Position numbers and translations under genes: made by a program. A stretch of 21,218 bases of DNA, taken from IMG/VR virus record IMGVR_UViG_2547132270_000005, positions 1 through 21,218 of that record; one strand, 5' to 3'. Under the pieces are notes generated by a model. That model had not been told where the DNA came from. It ran no database searches and saw only the letters and a list, made by a program, of their open reading frames with translations. Positions within the stretch are counted from its first letter, which is position 1. The number at the start of each line of letters is the position of its first letter. This document shows, piece after piece, positions 1 through 5,039 of this stretch. The stretch is from a virus. Taxonomy: Duplodnaviria; Heunggongvirae; Uroviricota; Caudoviricetes.

Positions 1-40
1 CAAGCTGATGATGCGGGTTCGATTCCCGCTACCCGCTCCA
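1..40 (+). tRNA. tRNA-Gly (UCC-type, glyT-like), 3' portion only; the 5' part lies outside the window
   Basis: Bases 1-40 read CAAGCTGATGATGCGGGTTCGATTCCCGCTACCCGCTCCA: a T-arm (GGTTCGATTCC), a 3' acceptor strand and terminal CCA. From memory this is near-identical to the 3' half of E. coli glyT (one acceptor-stem difference). The anticodon itself is outside the window. Confidence 0.7.
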
Positions 41-403
41 GCATTTGAAACAAGCCTTATTGTATTGCGGCACTGGCGTATTTTTTATTACGTGGGAGCA
101 GGTTGTTTTGAAAAAGCATTCTGTTCTCTGGCTATGATTTGAGGCCGGGTGTAGCCTCAGTGCTGATTTTTTTACGGTAGCAGAATGGTGCATTATCGAT
201 GGAGATTTTGTATTTCCTGGCAGGGTCGGTGATGCATCATTCTGGTGTTGTAAATCGCACCATAGAGGCGCTCCTCAGTGCGAGGGTGGTTTAAAGAGTC
301 GGTTTAGCGGGAAACCACAGTATCCATACAGCACGGAATACTTCGGGAGGCACCCGACGCCTCGGTTTAATAACAATTAAAAAATTCATCCCTTGCATTG
401 ACC

Positions 404-430
404 AACCGCCATATCTGGCGGTTTTTTTTA
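404..430 (+). terminator. Rho-independent terminator-like hairpin (CCGCCA-tatc-TGGCGG) followed by a T8 run
   Basis: Seen directly: 6-bp GC-rich stem at 406-411/416-421, then TTTTTTTT at 422-429. Oriented for + strand transcription; the opposite strand lacks a downstream U-tract. Confidence 0.5.
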
Positions 431-806
431 TTCCTTTCTCAGGACAAAAAAAGACACGAGCATCCAGGAATACTCGTGGGACAACGTCCTTTAGATAGCA
501 ATTTGCGAGAGGGTGAAAAAATGGCGCGGCTGTCGGATTAAAGCCGCGGGACAAAGTCCATGAAGAATAATAAGTATCAGCCTCCTACAGGAGACGAGTT
601 GATATTACTAAGCTTTAAAAATGGTTTAAATCCTCAGATTAACCTTAATTTCAGGTAAGTCTTATTTCATTTCTTCGCGCCACGCCCGGCGCACATCAAA
701 AACCACAGAGCCTTTCAGGGGTGAGCTTACGGGATGGTCAGTGTGACTTTCTCTGTGGGCTGGTCACCCCCGGGCGGAGGCTCACCCACTAAAAGGAAAA
801 GTCACG

Positions 807-1232
807 ATGTTTGGTATTTTCAAAAAGAAAACCCGCAAGGCCATTACCGAAGTGAAGAAGATGGAGAACCGCGATGCGGTGGAGGCGACCGTCTGGGGTG
901 CGTATTCCATCGCATACGCTGACGACACCTGTGACGCGAAAGAAATCGCAGTACTGGAGAAAACCATTGCAGCACTTCCTGCCTTTGCGCCGTTCTCCGG
1001 CGAGATTGCACAAATGAGTGCAAATATCCGCGCCCGTTATGAAGCGTCGCCGCGCTCTGCCAATGCTGAAGCCCTTCGTCAGCTGGCTGATGTTGCCGGT
1101 ACTGATGATGCAGTTAATGTACTGTGCCTGTGTCTGGATATCGCTGACCAGGATGGCATTGGTCCGGATGAAGAAGCACAGCTTAAGAAAATTGCTCAGG
1201 CGCTTCAGCTACCGCTGGAGCAGTACCTGTGA
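807..1232 (+). CDS. TerB-like (tellurite-resistance TerB / DjlA N-terminal fold) small protein, 141 aa
   Basis: ORF with RBS AAGGAAAAG 6-8 nt upstream of the ATG. The C-terminal segment LDIADQDGIGPDEEAQLKKIAQALQLPLEQY and the upstream helix pattern resemble the TerB acidic ADG/DEE signature. Family assignment is by eye only. Confidence 0.6.
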   Translation: MFGIFKKKTRKAITEVKKMENRDAVEATVWGAYSIAYADDTCDAKEIAVLEKTIAALPAFAPFSGEIAQMSANIRARYEASPRSANAEALRQLADVAGTDDAVNVLCLCLDIADQDGIGPDEEAQLKKIAQALQLPLEQYL

Positions 1233-1381
1233 AAAGTGCGCGCCTTGTACTGGCTGCCATCCTGCTGTTTCTGGTAGTGGCGGTGGATTTCACCGGACGG
1301 CTGATGTCGGTGCTGGCAGATGGTGTGCTGGTGGCGATGGCGCTGGTCGTGCTCCGGCCTTTACTGCGCAAATCTGAATAA
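1229..1381 (+). CDS. Small hydrophobic membrane peptide, 50 aa (MKSARLVLAAILLFLVVAVDFTGRLMSVLADGVLVAMALVVLRPLLRKSE)
   Basis: GTG start overlaps the TerB-like stop (GTGA). It is below the ORF track length cutoff. Two hydrophobic stretches, and a strong terminator follows. No RBS is visible other than coupling. Confidence 0.4.
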   Translation: MKSARLVLAAILLFLVVAVDFTGRLMSVLADGVLVAMALVVLRPLLRKSE

Positions 1382-1432
1382 CACCACACAAAAGGCATCT
1401 GCGGGTGCCTTTGACGGGGTGTTGTTTTTTTA

Positions 1433-1456
1433 CGGGCCGCTGGTGGCCCTTTTTTA
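1433..1456 (+). terminator. Rho-independent terminator (GGGCC-gctggt-GGCCC plus TTTTTT)
   Basis: Seen directly; a second hairpin (AAAGGCA...TGCCTTT, 1391-1413) with a T-run lies just upstream. It separates the TerB-like cassette from the lysis genes. Confidence 0.65.
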
Positions 1457-1474
1457 TTTACAGGAGAAAAAAGT

Positions 1475-1867
1475 ATGTCTGAACCCTTATCCGGTTCCGG
1501 TACGGCTGCGGCGCTCGGCGGGGCGACGGTGTACGGGCTGTTTACCGGAACGGATTTCGGGATTGTGTTTGGTGCGTTCGCCGGGGCGTTGTTTGTGGCA
1601 ACGATGCCGCAGCAGCTTTCAGCCTGGCGTGTGGCGGCGCATTTTCTGGTGTCGTTCATTGTTGGCGTGCTGGGAGCGCGTGTGCTGTCAGCCTGGATAG
1701 CGGCAAAAACAGGTTATGACGGTACATCGGCAGATGCGCTGTGCGCGGTGCTTGTCGCGGTAGTGTCGGTAAAGATTCTGTCGTTCATCCACCAGCAGGA
1801 TATCGCATCACTGGTGTCCGGTCTGTTCTCCCGCCTGCGGGGCGGAGGAGGTGGCAATGTTAAGTAA
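1475..1867 (+). CDS. Putative holin-like membrane protein (130 aa, multiple predicted transmembrane segments)
   Basis: Strong RBS (AGGAG) before the ATG at 1475. Gly/Ala-rich hydrophobic segments; sits immediately upstream of the endolysin gene. Holin call is by position and hydrophobicity, not motif. Confidence 0.55.
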   Translation: MSEPLSGSGTAAALGGATVYGLFTGTDFGIVFGAFAGALFVATMPQQLSAWRVAAHFLVSFIVGVLGARVLSAWIAAKTGYDGTSADALCAVLVAVVSVKILSFIHQQDIASLVSGLFSRLRGGGGGNVK

Positions 1868-2135
1868 CCTTCCCGACTTGCTGAATGTGGCGTTATGCAC
1901 GGTTATTGTGCTGACGCTCTTTTTTTATCGTCGCCGTGATTCCAGACATAAACCGCTGATGTCATGGCTGGCCTGGCTGCTGATGCTGCTTTATGCCTTT
2001 GCACCACTCAGCTATCTGTGCGGTCGCCCGTTAGCGGCGAACTGGCTGGCGGTGGGGCTTAATCTGCTGTTCTGCGTGTTGGTGATTCGCGCACGTGGGA
2101 ACGTTTCAAAAATCTTTGTATTACGAAGGCGCTGA
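1857..2135 (+). CDS. Second lysis-cassette membrane protein (about 92 aa; holin or antiholin-like)
   Basis: RBS GGAGGAGG precedes the ATG at 1857 (track ORF begins at 1851). Three hydrophobic stretches. The stop lies 2 nt before the endolysin start. Confidence 0.5.
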   Translation: MLSNLPDLLNVALCTVIVLTLFFYRRRDSRHKPLMSWLAWLLMLLYAFAPLSYLCGRPLAANWLAVGLNLLFCVLVIRARGNVSKIFVLRRR

Positions 2136-2136
2136 T

Positions 2137-2682
2137 ATGAAGTCGAAAGATGAAATTTTTGACGAAGTTCTGGGAAAAGAGGGCGGTTACGTCAATCACC
2201 CGGATGATAAAGGCGGACCGACAAAATGGGGTATTACGGAAAAAGTCGCCCGCGCTCACGGATATCAGGGCGATATGCGTGACCTGACACGCGAACAGGC
2301 GCTGGAAATCCTTGAGGCGGATTACTGGTTCGGACCACGCTTTGATCAGGTGGCCGCATTATCCTCTGATATTGCTGCAGAGTTGTGTGATACCGGTGTG
2401 AATATGGGGCCGTCCGTAGCATCGAAAATGCTCCAACGCTGGCTGAACGTTTTCAACCTGCAAGGCAAATTGTTCCCGGATATGGACGCAGACGGGCGTA
2501 TCGGCCCCCGCACGATTAATGCACTACGGACTTATCTGCAAAAACGCGGCAAAGACGGCGAACTGGTGATGCTGAAGGCGCTGAATTGCACGCAGGGCGA
2601 CCGCTATCTGGAGCTGGCAGAAAAACGCGAGGCCAACGAGTCGTTTGTCTACGGCTGGATGAAAGAGCGCGTAGCAGTTTAA
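2137..2682 (+). CDS. Endolysin, glycoside hydrolase family 108-like N-terminal domain with a C-terminal peptidoglycan-binding domain
   Basis: N-terminus DEIFDEVLGKEGGYVNHPDDKGGPTKWGIT matches the conserved GH108 N-terminal pattern (EGG...P.D.GG.T..GIT). The C-terminal region resembles a PG-binding domain. Start chosen at ATG 2137 (RBS GAAGG); the track ORF opens at 2095. Confidence 0.8.
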   Translation: MKSKDEIFDEVLGKEGGYVNHPDDKGGPTKWGITEKVARAHGYQGDMRDLTREQALEILEADYWFGPRFDQVAALSSDIAAELCDTGVNMGPSVASKMLQRWLNVFNLQGKLFPDMDADGRIGPRTINALRTYLQKRGKDGELVMLKALNCTQGDRYLELAEKREANESFVYGWMKERVAV

Positions 2683-2778
2683 AAACTGACGCTGAAGTGC
2701 TGAACACCCTCAACTCACGCAGGCTCTTTTCTGGGGTTACTATGAGCGAAAGTAAGGGGTACAGCATCAGATAGCAAA

Positions 2779-2810
2779 AACCCCGGCTGCTGGAACAGTC
2801 CGGGGTTTTT
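2779..2810 (+). terminator. Rho-independent terminator downstream of the endolysin gene (A-run, CCCCGG...CCGGGG hairpin, T-run)
   Basis: Seen directly: AAAAA-CCCCGGCTGCTGGAACAGTCCGGGG-TTTTT. The flanking A and T tracts could allow function on either strand. Confidence 0.65.
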
Positions 2811-2901
2811 AGTTTTCACGTCAAAGAGGAAATTGTGAGTAGTGAGTACGGAGAAAATCCTCGTGGGAAAGTATAAAAGATTCTTTTTGAGGTTGTCCAT
2901 T

Positions 2902-3015
2902 ATGAAAGGTATTGAAGTGGAAACTCCCGCGAGCCTTGATTTGACAAGGGCTGCGGCCTTTGCAATTCGCCTTGTGGCGGTCGCTGTTCTGATTTGGGCT
3001 GTGCGTTGGTGGTGA
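2902..3015 (+). CDS. Small membrane peptide, 37 aa (MKGIEVETPASLDLTRAAAFAIRLVAVAVLIWAVRWW)
   Basis: ATG start with a C-terminal hydrophobic helix; the stop sits 1 nt before the next ORF. Below the ORF track cutoff. Coding status uncertain. Confidence 0.35.
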   Translation: MKGIEVETPASLDLTRAAAFAIRLVAVAVLIWAVRWW

Positions 3016-3043
3016 TATGAGCCGAAAACACTGGACACACAGA

Positions 3044-3199
3044 ATGCCGCGAGCGGCGGCAAAATGGGCACTGGTAGCGATACTGGTGCCTTTTTTATTG
3101 GTGGGATGCGTTAGCCTGGATAAGGCGCGCCAGCTTTTCGATACCGCGTCTCAGGTCTGTCAGCTTATTGATGGCGTTCGACGGTGTACGCAGAACTGA
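3044..3199 (+). CDS. Small lipoprotein (signal peptide with lipobox LVGC; about 29-aa mature peptide); possible o-spanin-like, entericidin-like or exclusion lipoprotein
   Basis: From Met at 3044: positively charged n-region (MPRAAAK), hydrophobic core (WALVAILVPFLL), lipobox L-V-G-C. The track ORF begins at 3017. Confidence 0.5.
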   Translation: MPRAAAKWALVAILVPFLLVGCVSLDKARQLFDTASQVCQLIDGVRRCTQN

Positions 3200-3325: not shown

Positions 3326-4114
3326 ATGAGCGAGAAATTGAAGATCGTCTATCGCCCTTTACAAGAACTGTCTCCGTATGCACACAACGCCAGAACACAC
3401 AGCCCTGAGCAGGTGGCACAACTGGTAGAAAGCATTAAGCAATTCGGCTGGACTAATCCGGTGCTGATTGATGAAAAGGGCGAAATTATTGCGGGTCACG
3501 GTCGCGTTATGGCGGCTGAAGTGCTCAAAATGGATTCCATTCCGGTCATCGTTCTGTCTGGTCTGACGGATGATCAGAAAAAGGCGTACCGCCTGGCAGA
3601 TAATCGCCTGCCGATGAATGCTGGCTGGGATGAAGAGCTGTTACGGATGGAGCTGTCGGACCTAATCAATGCTGATTTTGATGTCTCCCTGACAGGCTTC
3701 AGCCCGACAGAAATTGATGAACTGTTGACGGATGTTTTGCCCGGTACAGGAAATGAGGAGGAGCCGTATACGACGAAAATTGATACGCCTGTTTATGAGC
3801 CGTCGGGCGGTAAACCGGATATCAGTGAACTGTACGACGATACGAAAACTCAGAAGTTGATCAGCCGGATACGTTCGGCGTCCCTTGATCCTGATATTGA
3901 GAAATTCCTCCTGTGTGCGGCAGAACGTCACACGGTGTTTAATTTCAGCAGAATTGCGGACTATTACGCTCACGCCCCTGCTGAAATTCAGTGCCTTTTC
4001 GAGGAGTCGGCGCTGGTGATCATTGATTATCAGCAGGCTATTGAAAATGGATTTGTCCGGATGACGCAGCGCATGGTGGAGATCATGCATGGCGGGGAGG
4101 AGGAATATGCGTGA
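3326..4114 (+). CDS. ParB-like (ParB/Srx fold) nuclease-domain protein, 262 aa
   Basis: The N-terminal roughly 100 aa (YRPLQELSPYAHNARTHSPEQVAQLVESIKQFGWTNPVLIDEKGEIIAGHGRVMAA...) fits the ParB N-terminal domain pattern, including the GxGR-type motif. The C-terminal half is unassigned. Confidence 0.7.
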   Translation: MSEKLKIVYRPLQELSPYAHNARTHSPEQVAQLVESIKQFGWTNPVLIDEKGEIIAGHGRVMAAEVLKMDSIPVIVLSGLTDDQKKAYRLADNRLPMNAGWDEELLRMELSDLINADFDVSLTGFSPTEIDELLTDVLPGTGNEEEPYTTKIDTPVYEPSGGKPDISELYDDTKTQKLISRIRSASLDPDIEKFLLCAAERHTVFNFSRIADYYAHAPAEIQCLFEESALVIIDYQQAIENGFVRMTQRMVEIMHGGEEEYA

Positions 4115-5039
4115 TGATTTTTGCGCCTTTATTCTGACTCACGGGCGACCGGACAAAGTTCTGACTTACCGGACGTTGCGTCGTGCTGGCTATACCGGGA
4201 AAATTTTTATCGTTGTTGATGATGAAGATAAGACACGGCATCAGTACATGGCTGAATTTGGTGAACAGGTGCTGGTGTTTTCCAAAGCCGATATCGCCAG
4301 TCGTTTTGACGAAGCCGATAATTTCGGTGACCGGCGCTCAATTTTTTACGCCCGTAATGCCTGTTTCGACCTGGCAAAACTGGTCGGGTGTAAATACTTC
4401 ATTCAGCTCGATGATGATTATCACGAGTTCCAGTTTCGGGTGGATCGCAACTATGACCAGGCCTATTTTCCGATAAGGAAACTGGATGCGATCCTTTCTG
4501 AAATGCTGGCGTATTACGAATCAATACCCGCGCTTTCCATCGCTATGTCGCAGGGCGGGGATTTTCTTGGTGACAATGGCGGCCATGCTTCGTGGGTGAA
4601 ACGCAAGGCAATGAACAGCTTTATCTGTTCGGTTGATCGACCGTTCTCATTCATGGGGCGCATTAACGAGGATGTGAATACGTACACGAATCTCGGTCGC
4701 CGTGGTGAATTGTTTATGACGATCGGTGCTGTCCAGTTAGGGCAGAAACAGACGCAGAAAAACAGCGGCGGAATGACCGAGCTGTATCTGGATTCCGGAA
4801 CCTATGTTAAAAGTTTTTACTCCGTCATGCATGCGCCGTCGTGCGTAAAAATCTCACTGATGGGCGCCAGCCATAAACGCATTCACCATCAGGTCACCTG
4901 GAACAACGCTGCAGTAAAAATCCTTCACGAAAAATACAGGAAGAAGACACCCTGCATATCAATGGGGGTGACAAATGATTCCGTATTCGAAAGTCGAGTC
5001 TCTGGCAGCGTGCCGGATGACTGCACAACAAATCGCTGA
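4107..5039 (+). CDS. Hypothetical enzyme, possibly glycosyltransferase-A-like (acidic motifs IFIVVDDED and IQLDDDYHEF)
   Basis: RBS GGAGGAGG before the ATG at 4107 (track ORF opens at 4089); the ParB-like stop falls inside its first codons. Motif spacing resembles the GT-A/GT2 DxD arrangement. No PP-loop or methyltransferase motifs were seen. Function is inference only. Confidence 0.55.
   Translation: MRDDFCAFILTHGRPDKVLTYRTLRRAGYTGKIFIVVDDEDKTRHQYMAEFGEQVLVFSKADIASRFDEADNFGDRRSIFYARNACFDLAKLVGCKYFIQLDDDYHEFQFRVDRNYDQAYFPIRKLDAILSEMLAYYESIPALSIAMSQGGDFLGDNGGHASWVKRKAMNSFICSVDRPFSFMGRINEDVNTYTNLGRRGELFMTIGAVQLGQKQTQKNSGGMTELYLDSGTYVKSFYSVMHAPSCVKISLMGASHKRIHHQVTWNNAAVKILHEKYRKKTPCISMGVTNDSVFESRVSGSVPDDCTTNR

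Follow-up and report, generated by a model that had tools for sequence, protein, structure and literature searches.

A conserved, terminator-ended RNA with an STnc100-like 3′ half between the tRNA and lysis genes of a lambdoid prophage

In this study, we explored the non-coding stretch at positions 41–806 of a 21,218-nt DNA from a virus of the class Caudoviricetes (IMG/VR record IMGVR_UViG_2547132270_000005, positions 1 to 21,218; "the window" denotes this whole stretch at its full length), which lies between a tRNA gene and the first protein-coding gene. We found that positions 41–433 encode a conserved multi-domain RNA on the + strand that ends in an intrinsic terminator. From covariance-model matches, its 3′ part from domain P2 to the terminator (~256–433) is a divergent homologue of the small RNA (sRNA) STnc100, known from Salmonella and E. 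coli prophages. We propose, with a probability of roughly 60%, that 41–433 is a prophage sRNA gene with a terminator that additionally insulates the lysis genes until antitermination by the phage protein Q. A phage sRNA was one of several possibilities raised in an initial annotation of this DNA, and for 41–433 it is the one favoured by our data, which point to a covariation-supported, terminator-ended + strand RNA and a distant relative of STnc100.

Results

Conserved structure of the RNA at 41–433

The element consists of the following parts, and homologous loci are cited below by L numbers.

41–433, + strand: conserved structured RNA module (P0, U7 tract, P1, P2, linker, terminator), from covariation, minimum-free-energy folding and homologues
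68–165, + strand: P0 domain, closing helix 68–75/158–165 (CGGCACTG/CAGTGCTG), 98.7% paired
76–79/90–93 and 143–145/154–156, + strand: P0 sub-hairpins in the variable insert, from the consensus fold
167–173, + strand: U7 tract directly 3′ of P0, a T-run in 30 of 30 homologues
171–254, + strand: P1, a long irregular hairpin of 27 + 4 bp (31 bp), 98.1% paired
265–363, + strand: P2, an STnc100-like four-way junction with multi-branch core, closed by 265–270/358–363, from covariation and alignment to the Rfam model
273–275/283–285, 286–291/313–318, 319–325/336–342 and 343–347/353–357 (loop AGGCA), + strand: hairpins of P2, from the consensus fold
364–403, + strand: single-stranded, variable A/U-rich linker of ~40 nt with AAU-AAC-AAU repeats, from the alignment
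404–431, + strand: intrinsic terminator T1 (stem 404–423, U8 tail), also the boundary of the module

The fold was derived from an alignment (A2) of 30 copies, each <97% identical, for which RNAalifold gave 77 pairs in 11 helices. In this alignment 97.8% of the pair cells are paired, as against 37–50% when the partners are slid by 1–3 columns, and compensatory change is seen in 16 pairs and 78 cells, as against 2–4 pairs and 2–19 cells in the slid controls. None of 500 shuffles matched the observed pairing values, although shuffle statistics overstate significance for sequences that share descent, which makes the shifted-partner control the fairer one. Folding of 41–436 yielded −141.4 kcal/mol (z = −4.81), and none of 100 shuffles was as good. 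Numerous G·U pairs would become C·A on the opposite strand, and the positions concerned alternate between G·U, A·U and G·C; because this alternation works on the + strand only, we take the + strand to be the functional one. Covariation analysis and conservation of the hairpins in related phages had been suggested as checks in the initial annotation. Both are now available and reveal a conserved fold with compensatory changes across 30 homologues, though the pairing annotated at 346–363 had to be replaced.

The 5′ domain P0 retains its closing helix in all insert variants, with an insert sequence that varies by lineage. A hairpin annotated at 141–158 does exist, with its core at 143–145/154–156, and turned out to be a lineage-specific sub-hairpin inside the larger domain closed by 68–75/158–165. 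Directly 3′ of P0 follows the U7 tract, the last three U of which also pair into the base of P1; the terminator scan lists 139–160 plus its tail as a weak site, and P0 together with U7 looks like a first terminator that is possibly leaky. P1 shows compensatory change in five pairs and contains many G·U pairs workable on the + strand only. The near-invariant motif ATTTCCTGGCAGGG at 212–225 spans the apical helix and the 3′ internal loop of this domain; a search for sites complementary to the motif within the window gave chance-level matches only.

In P2, compensatory changes are present in the closing helix and in P2c. The second annotated hairpin, at 346–363 (347–351/359–363), did not survive: its closing pair is broken in 17 of the 30 sequences, there is no compensatory change, and all 500 shuffles equal it. 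Instead, the GCCTC arm pairs over a long range with GAGGCG at 265–270, and CGGG/CCCG form the local hairpin 343–357. This long-range alternative is 98.5% paired with 16 compensatory cells, and its observed value was reached in 0 of 500 shuffles. The terminator that had been placed at 404–430 was recovered at 404–431 and is kept in 30 of 30 homologues; its stem of 8 bp (5 G–C) carries a 4-nt loop and is followed by the U8 tail.

Relation to STnc100 and PasD

A scan of the full window against Rfam at gathering thresholds gave no match. The Rfam model of STnc100 (RF02076) aligns to 237–433 of the window with 18.2 bits (E 0.57), and at the equivalent sub-region in seven of seven diverged members it scores 18.2, 19.5, 22.4, 27.6, 32.8, 34.5 and 35.5 bits. 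Each part of the STnc100 consensus architecture, including the CGGGAGGCACCCG hairpin, is placed in the window by the model alignment and matches the covariation-supported P2 and terminator. In the other direction, a covariance model (R1) built from the 41–433 family only, whose E-values are rough, recovers genuine STnc100 at L012 113–304 (28.3 bits, E 1e-5) and at L006 2577–2768 (21.1 bits, E 9e-4). The latter scores 107 bits with Rfam STnc100 and lies in the same prophage region, upstream of the tRNAs. An intermediate paralogue, found at L154 2257–2438, scores 99 bits with R1 and 35.5 bits with the Rfam model of STnc100. Because covariance models detect the kinship both ways, we classify the half from P2 to the terminator as a diverged RNA of the STnc100 type.

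STnc100 sits 75 nt downstream of stx2B in Stx2 phages (PMC12370729) and is expressed in Salmonella LT2, where RpoD and RpoN bind the promoter regions of its copies (PMC10794520). It has been proposed to share ancestry with PasD (bioRxiv 10.64898/2026.05.13.724894), an abundant discrete sRNA whose stability on Northern blots is Hfq-dependent and which is also present in RIL-seq (ligation and sequencing of interacting RNAs) data (PMC8550237). By BLAST, PasD and STnc100 are ~80% identical over 46–49 nt, and the link between our element and PasD runs through STnc100 only. General features of Hfq-binding sRNAs are present in the element, namely the U8 tail and the single-stranded A/U-rich linker 364–403, and these are permissive, not diagnostic. 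The seed of PasD corresponds in position to the linker (bioRxiv 10.64898/2026.05.13.724894), which may have a role in Hfq binding or as a seed. A full-text search of the literature for the motif GGGAGGCACCCGAC matched no paper.

Genomic setting and distribution

In all chromosomal and phage loci inspected with an intact upstream flank, the gene order is a Q-type antiterminator, one to four tRNA genes ending in tRNA-Gly, an unannotated stretch, (TerB/DUF3927), holins, endolysin and terminase. This shared order puts 41–806 in the "moron" region of a lambdoid prophage, flanked by the late promoter and the lysis genes. The tRNA gene reported directly before the stretch is real: window bases 1–40 align with annotated tRNA-Gly genes of phage and E. 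coli records, and ARAGORN called no tRNA at 1–40 because the gene is truncated by the window edge.

The whole of 41–806 had been described as about 760 nt of structured non-coding DNA. The non-coding character was upheld, whereas the single anatomy was not, since pairwise mapping of homologous loci resolves the stretch into three independently assorting pieces, that is, a mosaic of the modules 41–433, 434–705 and 706–806. Positions 1–433 always occur together with tRNA-Gly, and homology stops at 433/434, directly after the terminator. Positions 434–511 exist in at least four alternative versions among the loci, 512–664 is found in most loci and missing from some, and 665–1300 (leader and TerB) maps as a separate module. 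The unannotated gap between tRNA-Gly and the lysis genes is thus a stack of terminator-bounded RNA modules, not spacer. In agreement with the earlier view that no convincing open reading frame (ORF) occupies 41–806, the longest candidate has 87 amino acids. None of the ORFs there (≤87 amino acids) matches Pfam, and a single PHROG match is marginal (E 0.031). At least 5 of 17 representative homologues carry a frameshift in a 32-amino-acid ORF at 560–658, and the 87-amino-acid minus-strand ORF at 291–554 spans a mosaic breakpoint.

By distant BLAST, 425 of 5426 complete E. coli genomes (~8%) contain copies of the element, none of them annotated, and a gapped motif scan found it on 72 IMG/VR viral contigs; identity among copies is 70–99%. 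In addition, 143 E. coli plasmids, 129 of them predicted to be conjugative, carry a 70%-identical, structure-preserving copy outside any late operon. What follows directly 3′ of the element differs by locus, being TerB, a holin, other terminator modules or, on plasmids, a DMT transporter gene. Because homology stops right after the terminator and plasmid copies lie outside late operons, we regard 41–433 as an autonomous module. A scan of genome contigs with the 16-mer TTCGGGAGGCACCCGA returned chance matches only, from unrelated phyla (L019–L138, which were set aside).

Several individual loci deserve mention. In E. coli DH5alpha (L014, NZ_CP026085.1 2577756–2583046) the element is present at 86.8% identity in a prophage, presumably the phi80-derived one, in which the DUF1133 gene, tRNA-Thr, tRNA-Gly, the element and the holins follow one another. 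At the one plasmid locus inspected, on an IncF plasmid (L018 2316–2790), the copy lies behind a degenerate tRNA ("tRNA-OTHER") and immediately before the gene of a DMT-family transporter, amid insertion sequence elements. In L012 the tRNA part of the flank is replaced, with P1, P2 and the terminator retained. The viral contig L154 carries, upstream of its tRNA genes at 2060–2438, a second, diverged P0-P1-P2-terminator copy. No tRNA immediately precedes this paralogue, in which P0, a U8 tract, a P1-like hairpin, P2 and the terminator are all present and a perfect TATAAT stands just ahead of the P2 helix. Because it is complete without an adjacent tRNA, the unit of ~390 nt is not strictly tRNA-dependent. 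Matches to isrK, C4 antisense RNA and c4-a1b1 above Rfam thresholds were found upstream of the Q region at L003 2127–2328 and L154 665–863. The record of L003 (PP818812.1) bears the name "Actinobacillus phage vB_Apl-pPE4" and shares 95% identity with the enterobacterial prophage of this study across window positions 661–1300.

Promoters and terminators

A consensus scan of 1–2200 found no promoter-like site. Among the candidates tried, sigma-70 sites inside P1 or ahead of P2 reached at best 3–4 of 6 positions per hexamer, and TGGCAG...GCAT in the P1 loop does not qualify as a sigma-54 site, since its GG-to-GC spacing is 15 instead of 12. By eye, no −10 element was seen ahead of P2 in the 41–433 family. 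Terminators on the + strand ahead of the holin gene were located at 139–173 (weak), 404–431 and 1434–1457. In L004, a 13-bp terminator at 3113–3144 directly follows the Q gene, which ends at 3035.

Flanking modules and downstream genes

The tRNA flank and the features downstream of the element are as follows.

1–40, + strand: 3′ end of the phage tRNA-Gly gene, truncated where the window starts, from tRNA-Gly annotations at the aligned positions of homologues
446–478, − strand: convergent terminator-like hairpin 478–455 with U-run 454–446, from the terminator scan
512–705, no strand assigned: conserved non-coding block B with hairpins H1–H5, in ~60 of 85 related loci
525–531/542–548 (H1), 549–552/556–559 (H2), 582–585/590–593 (H3), 619–667 (H4) and 677–681/688–692 (H5), no strand assigned: hairpins of block B, from the alignment
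514–595, − strand: candidate small RNA of ~85 nt, from its 5′ end H3, AU-rich linker, H2, H1 and U-run, from sequence and alignment A6
706–806, + strand: cassette leader, nested inverted repeats rich in G+C that can pair in two competing registers, from folding and 18 distinct homologues
807–1232, + strand: TerB-family gene (Pfam TerB, 29 bits)
1229–1381, + strand: DUF3927 gene (Pfam DUF3927, 53.5 bits)
1434–1457, + strand: intrinsic terminator GGGCCGCTGGTGGCCC + T6 upstream of the holin ribosome-binding site, from the terminator scan; the holin leader is also present in L014

The minus-strand hairpin 478–455 faces the + strand terminator 404–431 at a distance of ~25 nt. At the site of the 478–446 terminator, L004-type loci contain unrelated sequence with the same layout. 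In L011 (3778–4191; also L006, L012, L017, L142 and L166), an insert of ~414–445 nt stands in place of window 434–511 and holds two further + strand terminators (3951–3974 + T8; 4144–4163); more terminator-bounded small modules may occupy this site. Scanning 425–815 against Rfam at E ≤ 10 produced noise only, and the anti-sRNAs AsxR and AgvB (RF02703/RF02702) were not matched at E ≤ 10 on 425–815 or at E ≤ 1 on 1–3000.

Within block B, compensatory changes were found in H1, H3 and H5. The strand signals are split: H4 is rich in G·U, works on the + strand only and is kept via G·U intermediates, whereas an extra H3 pair favours the − strand. In most lineages H1 is followed by U6–U8 on the minus strand, and a putative weak promoter (TTTAAA-N17-TAATAT, 630–602, minus strand) was left unflagged by the consensus scan. 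A minus-strand sRNA at 514–595 is a speculative proposal. Its AU-rich linker would lie antisense to where the mini-ORF at 560 starts, with 548–525 as terminator hairpin, and a second minus-strand terminator lies ~70 nt beyond, at 478–446. The pattern is similar to that of PasA, which occurs mainly as an 85-nt RNA and to a lesser extent as one of 236 nt.

The leader 706–806 had been drawn as an inverted repeat of 720–726 with 780–786 around an inner GTGAC/GTCAC stem (743–747/763–767). These repeats exist and their fold is feasible at −39.1 kcal/mol, but they do not form the minimum-free-energy register and have no evolutionary support. A competing register (708–716/772–783 and 718–724/764–770), which stems from the repeated TCACCC, is the minimum-free-energy fold at −42.0 kcal/mol, so that the annotated register is ~3 kcal/mol costlier. 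The leader as a whole is marginally better than shuffles (z = −1.88) and near-invariant in 18 distinct homologues (>95% identical), leaving little covariation signal, and four of four patterns of outer-stem substitution, from five homologues, break pairs. It was also said to reach the ribosome-binding site of the TerB-like gene; it ends near it, ~8 nt before the Shine-Dalgarno sequence, which is left free. A resemblance of PasA to the minus strand of the 720–790 leader was a first impression that did not hold.

The 720–786 leader belongs to a separate, recently inserted module, the TerB/DUF3927 cassette. In phi80-type loci (L014; also L001, L002 and L016) the cassette is missing and block B runs straight into the holin leader, which in the window is found only at 1386–1474; because block B adjoins the holin leader directly in these loci, we regard the cassette (~706–1385) as an insertion. 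The cassette flanks have AACCACA / ACACCACACA in common. In the holin leader (1393–1457), a hairpin GGCATCTGCGGGTGCC precedes a strong terminator ~15 nt before the holin ribosome-binding site, and this terminator, 1434–1457, is a further barrier for late transcription to read through. The TerB-family gene (807–1232) and the DUF3927 gene (1229–1381) are followed by genes for two holins and a GH108 endolysin. A sub-threshold match to sar RNA (RF00262; 23.3 bits, cut-off 43, E 0.16) was seen on the minus strand at 2773–2876, close downstream of the endolysin gene.

Discussion

Proposed role of the 41–433 RNA

We propose a model in which the RNA would be made in lysogens and/or late in infection. 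In the simplest reading it would be co-transcribed with the phage tRNAs, as the long 3′ trailer of their operon between the leaky P0 + U7 and the final terminator 404–431; alternatively, it might start from an unrecognised promoter. The released RNA would then act in trans as a small RNA that works by base-pairing or by binding protein, and a function of the STnc100/PasD kind seems most likely. That the RNA itself is functional is suggested by its extensive conserved pairing, by the plasmid-borne copies and by the second copy in L154. At the same time, the terminators of the element and the one before the holin gene would be barriers in cis, passed only by Q-modified RNA polymerase, and would keep the lysis genes silent in the lysogen. 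Read-through by the Q-modified enzyme can reasonably be expected, because the lysis genes lie behind several terminators without a promoter-like site between them.

A number of observations weigh against this proposal, in addition to the shared descent of the aligned sequences. Neither the scan nor manual inspection found a convincing sigma-70 promoter inside the element or immediately upstream of it, and a TTGCGA-16-TATCAT sequence ~60 nt upstream of tRNA-Thr in two homologues, matching the consensus at 9 of 12 positions, occurs at a frequency expected by chance. All members of the family stay below the STnc100 gathering score (18–35 versus 47 bits). PasD1 and PasD2 of E2348/69 gave nothing above chance against the window by BLAST, and R1 misses the PasD copies at L007 1658–1829 and L009 2261–2433. 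We know of no function for STnc100 or PasD. P0 and P1 have no counterpart in either of these RNAs, and because of this the RNA may do something different.

Alternative explanations

If the RNA were purely a leader of the late operon acting in cis, its terminators would block read-through until Q acts, or its structure would stabilise or process the late transcript, and no functional RNA would be released. The position between Q/pR′ and the lysis genes speaks for such a leader, as do the several + strand terminators without a promoter-like site between them and the fact that no promoter could be assigned to the element. A barrier, however, requires a terminator hairpin only, and not ~70 conserved pairs with compensatory changes in four domains; moreover, the intact structure is retained on F-type plasmids before an unrelated transporter gene, a second copy lies upstream of the tRNAs in L154, the relative STnc100 is expressed in Salmonella LT2 (PMC10794520), and PasD is a discrete and abundant sRNA (PMC8550237). 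We therefore consider a mere cis leader unlikely, though worth serious consideration. Ranking below it, and doubtful in our view, is a strict 3′ trailer of the tRNA operon in the manner of 3′ETS-leuZ, that is, a tail of the tRNA-Thr/tRNA-Gly precursor released by RNase E or RNase P that would serve as a sponge or as an element of tRNA processing or stability. The element does start immediately after tRNA-Gly in all chromosomal and phage loci examined with an intact upstream flank, 41–431 spans the interval from tRNA-Gly to the first strong terminator with no internal promoter found, and the layout with two terminators (P0 + U7 and T1) resembles that of the sRNAs between two rrn terminators (PMC8144298). 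Against a strict trailer stand the L154 paralogue without a tRNA directly upstream, L012, which keeps P1, P2 and the terminator behind a replaced tRNA part, and a size of 390 nt with four domains, far more elaborate than known 3′ETS sRNAs. A further reading, which we hold to be quite improbable, is that P0-P1-P2 forms a large multi-domain RNA of ~390 nt that is functionally coupled to the phage tRNA genes and more than a base-pairing sRNA. It could, for example, be a scaffold or decoy for host enzymes that process or target tRNA, for RNase III (31-bp P1 helix) or for the ribosome (invariant GGGAGG hairpin), and the near-invariant ATTTCCTGGCAGGG of the P1 loop would then be a recognition site. 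If such a coupling were true, the STnc100 and PasD "sRNAs" would be trimmed-down descendants of a larger RNA.

The remaining explanations fare considerably worse. The initial annotation had considered an attenuator for the downstream cassette, and a riboswitch-like leader governing the TerB/lysis genes via 404–431 would indeed fit a structured region with a terminator upstream of genes. Yet homology stops directly after the terminator, the genes downstream vary by locus, the ~40-nt variable unpaired linker parts P2 from the terminator, the consensus fold holds no competitor for pairing with the terminator arm, and no cis-regulatory family of Rfam matches, which renders such control very unlikely. 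We give still less credence to an RNA of the lambda 6S/StxS type, which would run from pR′ and stop at tR′ without Q. It would account for an RNA that ends at a terminator between Q and the lysis genes, and regulation by byproducts of this sort is known from StxS (PMC7547250), but at least 350 nt plus one to four tRNA genes separate the element from Q, and in L004 the strong terminator 3113–3144 directly after Q marks the place where a pR′–tR′ leader would end. Furthermore, the element follows four kinds of Q-region product (DUF1133, lambda-Q type, small Q family and "antitermination protein") and, because these differ, it cannot carry a Q-specific loading site. The comparison with the lambda late leader drawn in the initial annotation thus finds no support in homology or position, the element lying downstream of the tRNA genes with a separate post-Q terminator in L004, and keeps its value for the expected read-through by Q. 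Protein coding via small or overlapping ORFs is hardly credible either. Some records do annotate ORFs there (L002 4232–4549, −; L017 2680–2934, −; L016 2579–2992, +), but these disagree in strand and frame, are missing from most records and match no Pfam family and PHROG at most marginally (E 0.031); in addition, indels are not multiples of three, and substitutions track base-pairing and not codon position.

Significance and comparison with known systems

In pathogenic E. coli and Salmonella, host regulation is rewired by prophage sRNAs from the moron region between Q and the lysis genes (AsxR, AgvB, PasA–D, StxS, STnc100). Read as an sRNA gene, the element would be a structurally well-supported, unannotated branch of this group, extending the STnc100 core by ~200 nt of new conserved structure (P0, P1) and tying the family to phage tRNA genes. 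P0/P1 and the tRNA linkage would offer a concrete handle on how STnc100-type RNAs are made and have evolved, and the presence of the element in the DH5alpha prophage renders its expression and function checkable with existing data and simple genetics. The stacked modules before the lysis genes also bear on the annotation of prophages and on the question of how lysis (and toxin) genes are held silent before Q acts.

Among known systems, the sRNAs derived from the tails of stable RNAs, 3′ETS-leuZ and rrA/rrB/rrF (PMC8144298), are like the element in lying between the last stable-RNA gene and the final terminator of the operon; the element is much longer and more structured, and its first terminator-like part, P0 + U7, may be read through. 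Lambda 6S and StxS likewise are terminated RNAs of the late region with a terminator that needs to be overridden by Q. The element differs from them in lying after the tRNAs and not at pR′, in being independent of the type of Q, and in having no sequence or structural similarity to them. Convergent pairs of sRNAs have been described at the moron site downstream of pR′ in eight O157 prophages including Sp5 (Tree et al. 2014, PMC4104026), and the window resembles them in its facing terminators between upstream cargo and lysis genes, with a minus-strand partner that is putative here. PasD1 and PasD2 (EcOnc13), which are Hfq-dependent RNAs of enteropathogenic and enterohaemorrhagic E. coli, share with the element the prophage interval between Q and lysis genes and the terminal terminator. 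They are ~170 nt long and, unlike the element, have a clear TTGACT-type promoter directly upstream. Closest is STnc100, which occupies the same niche of lambdoid prophages as the element, beside morons and between Q and the lysis genes, and shares with the 3′ half of the element the outer helix enclosing hairpins, the linker, the intrinsic terminator and the (C)GGGAGGCACCCG hairpin. The element differs from STnc100 in two extra 5′ domains, P0 and P1 (~200 nt), in being tied to the tRNA-Gly gene, and in that its own promoter is unrecognised, whereas the STnc100 copies of LT2 have promoter regions with RpoD/RpoN binding (PMC10794520). What is known in this RNA is thus the STnc100-type core, and what is new are the 5′ domains P0 and P1 and the linkage to phage tRNA genes.

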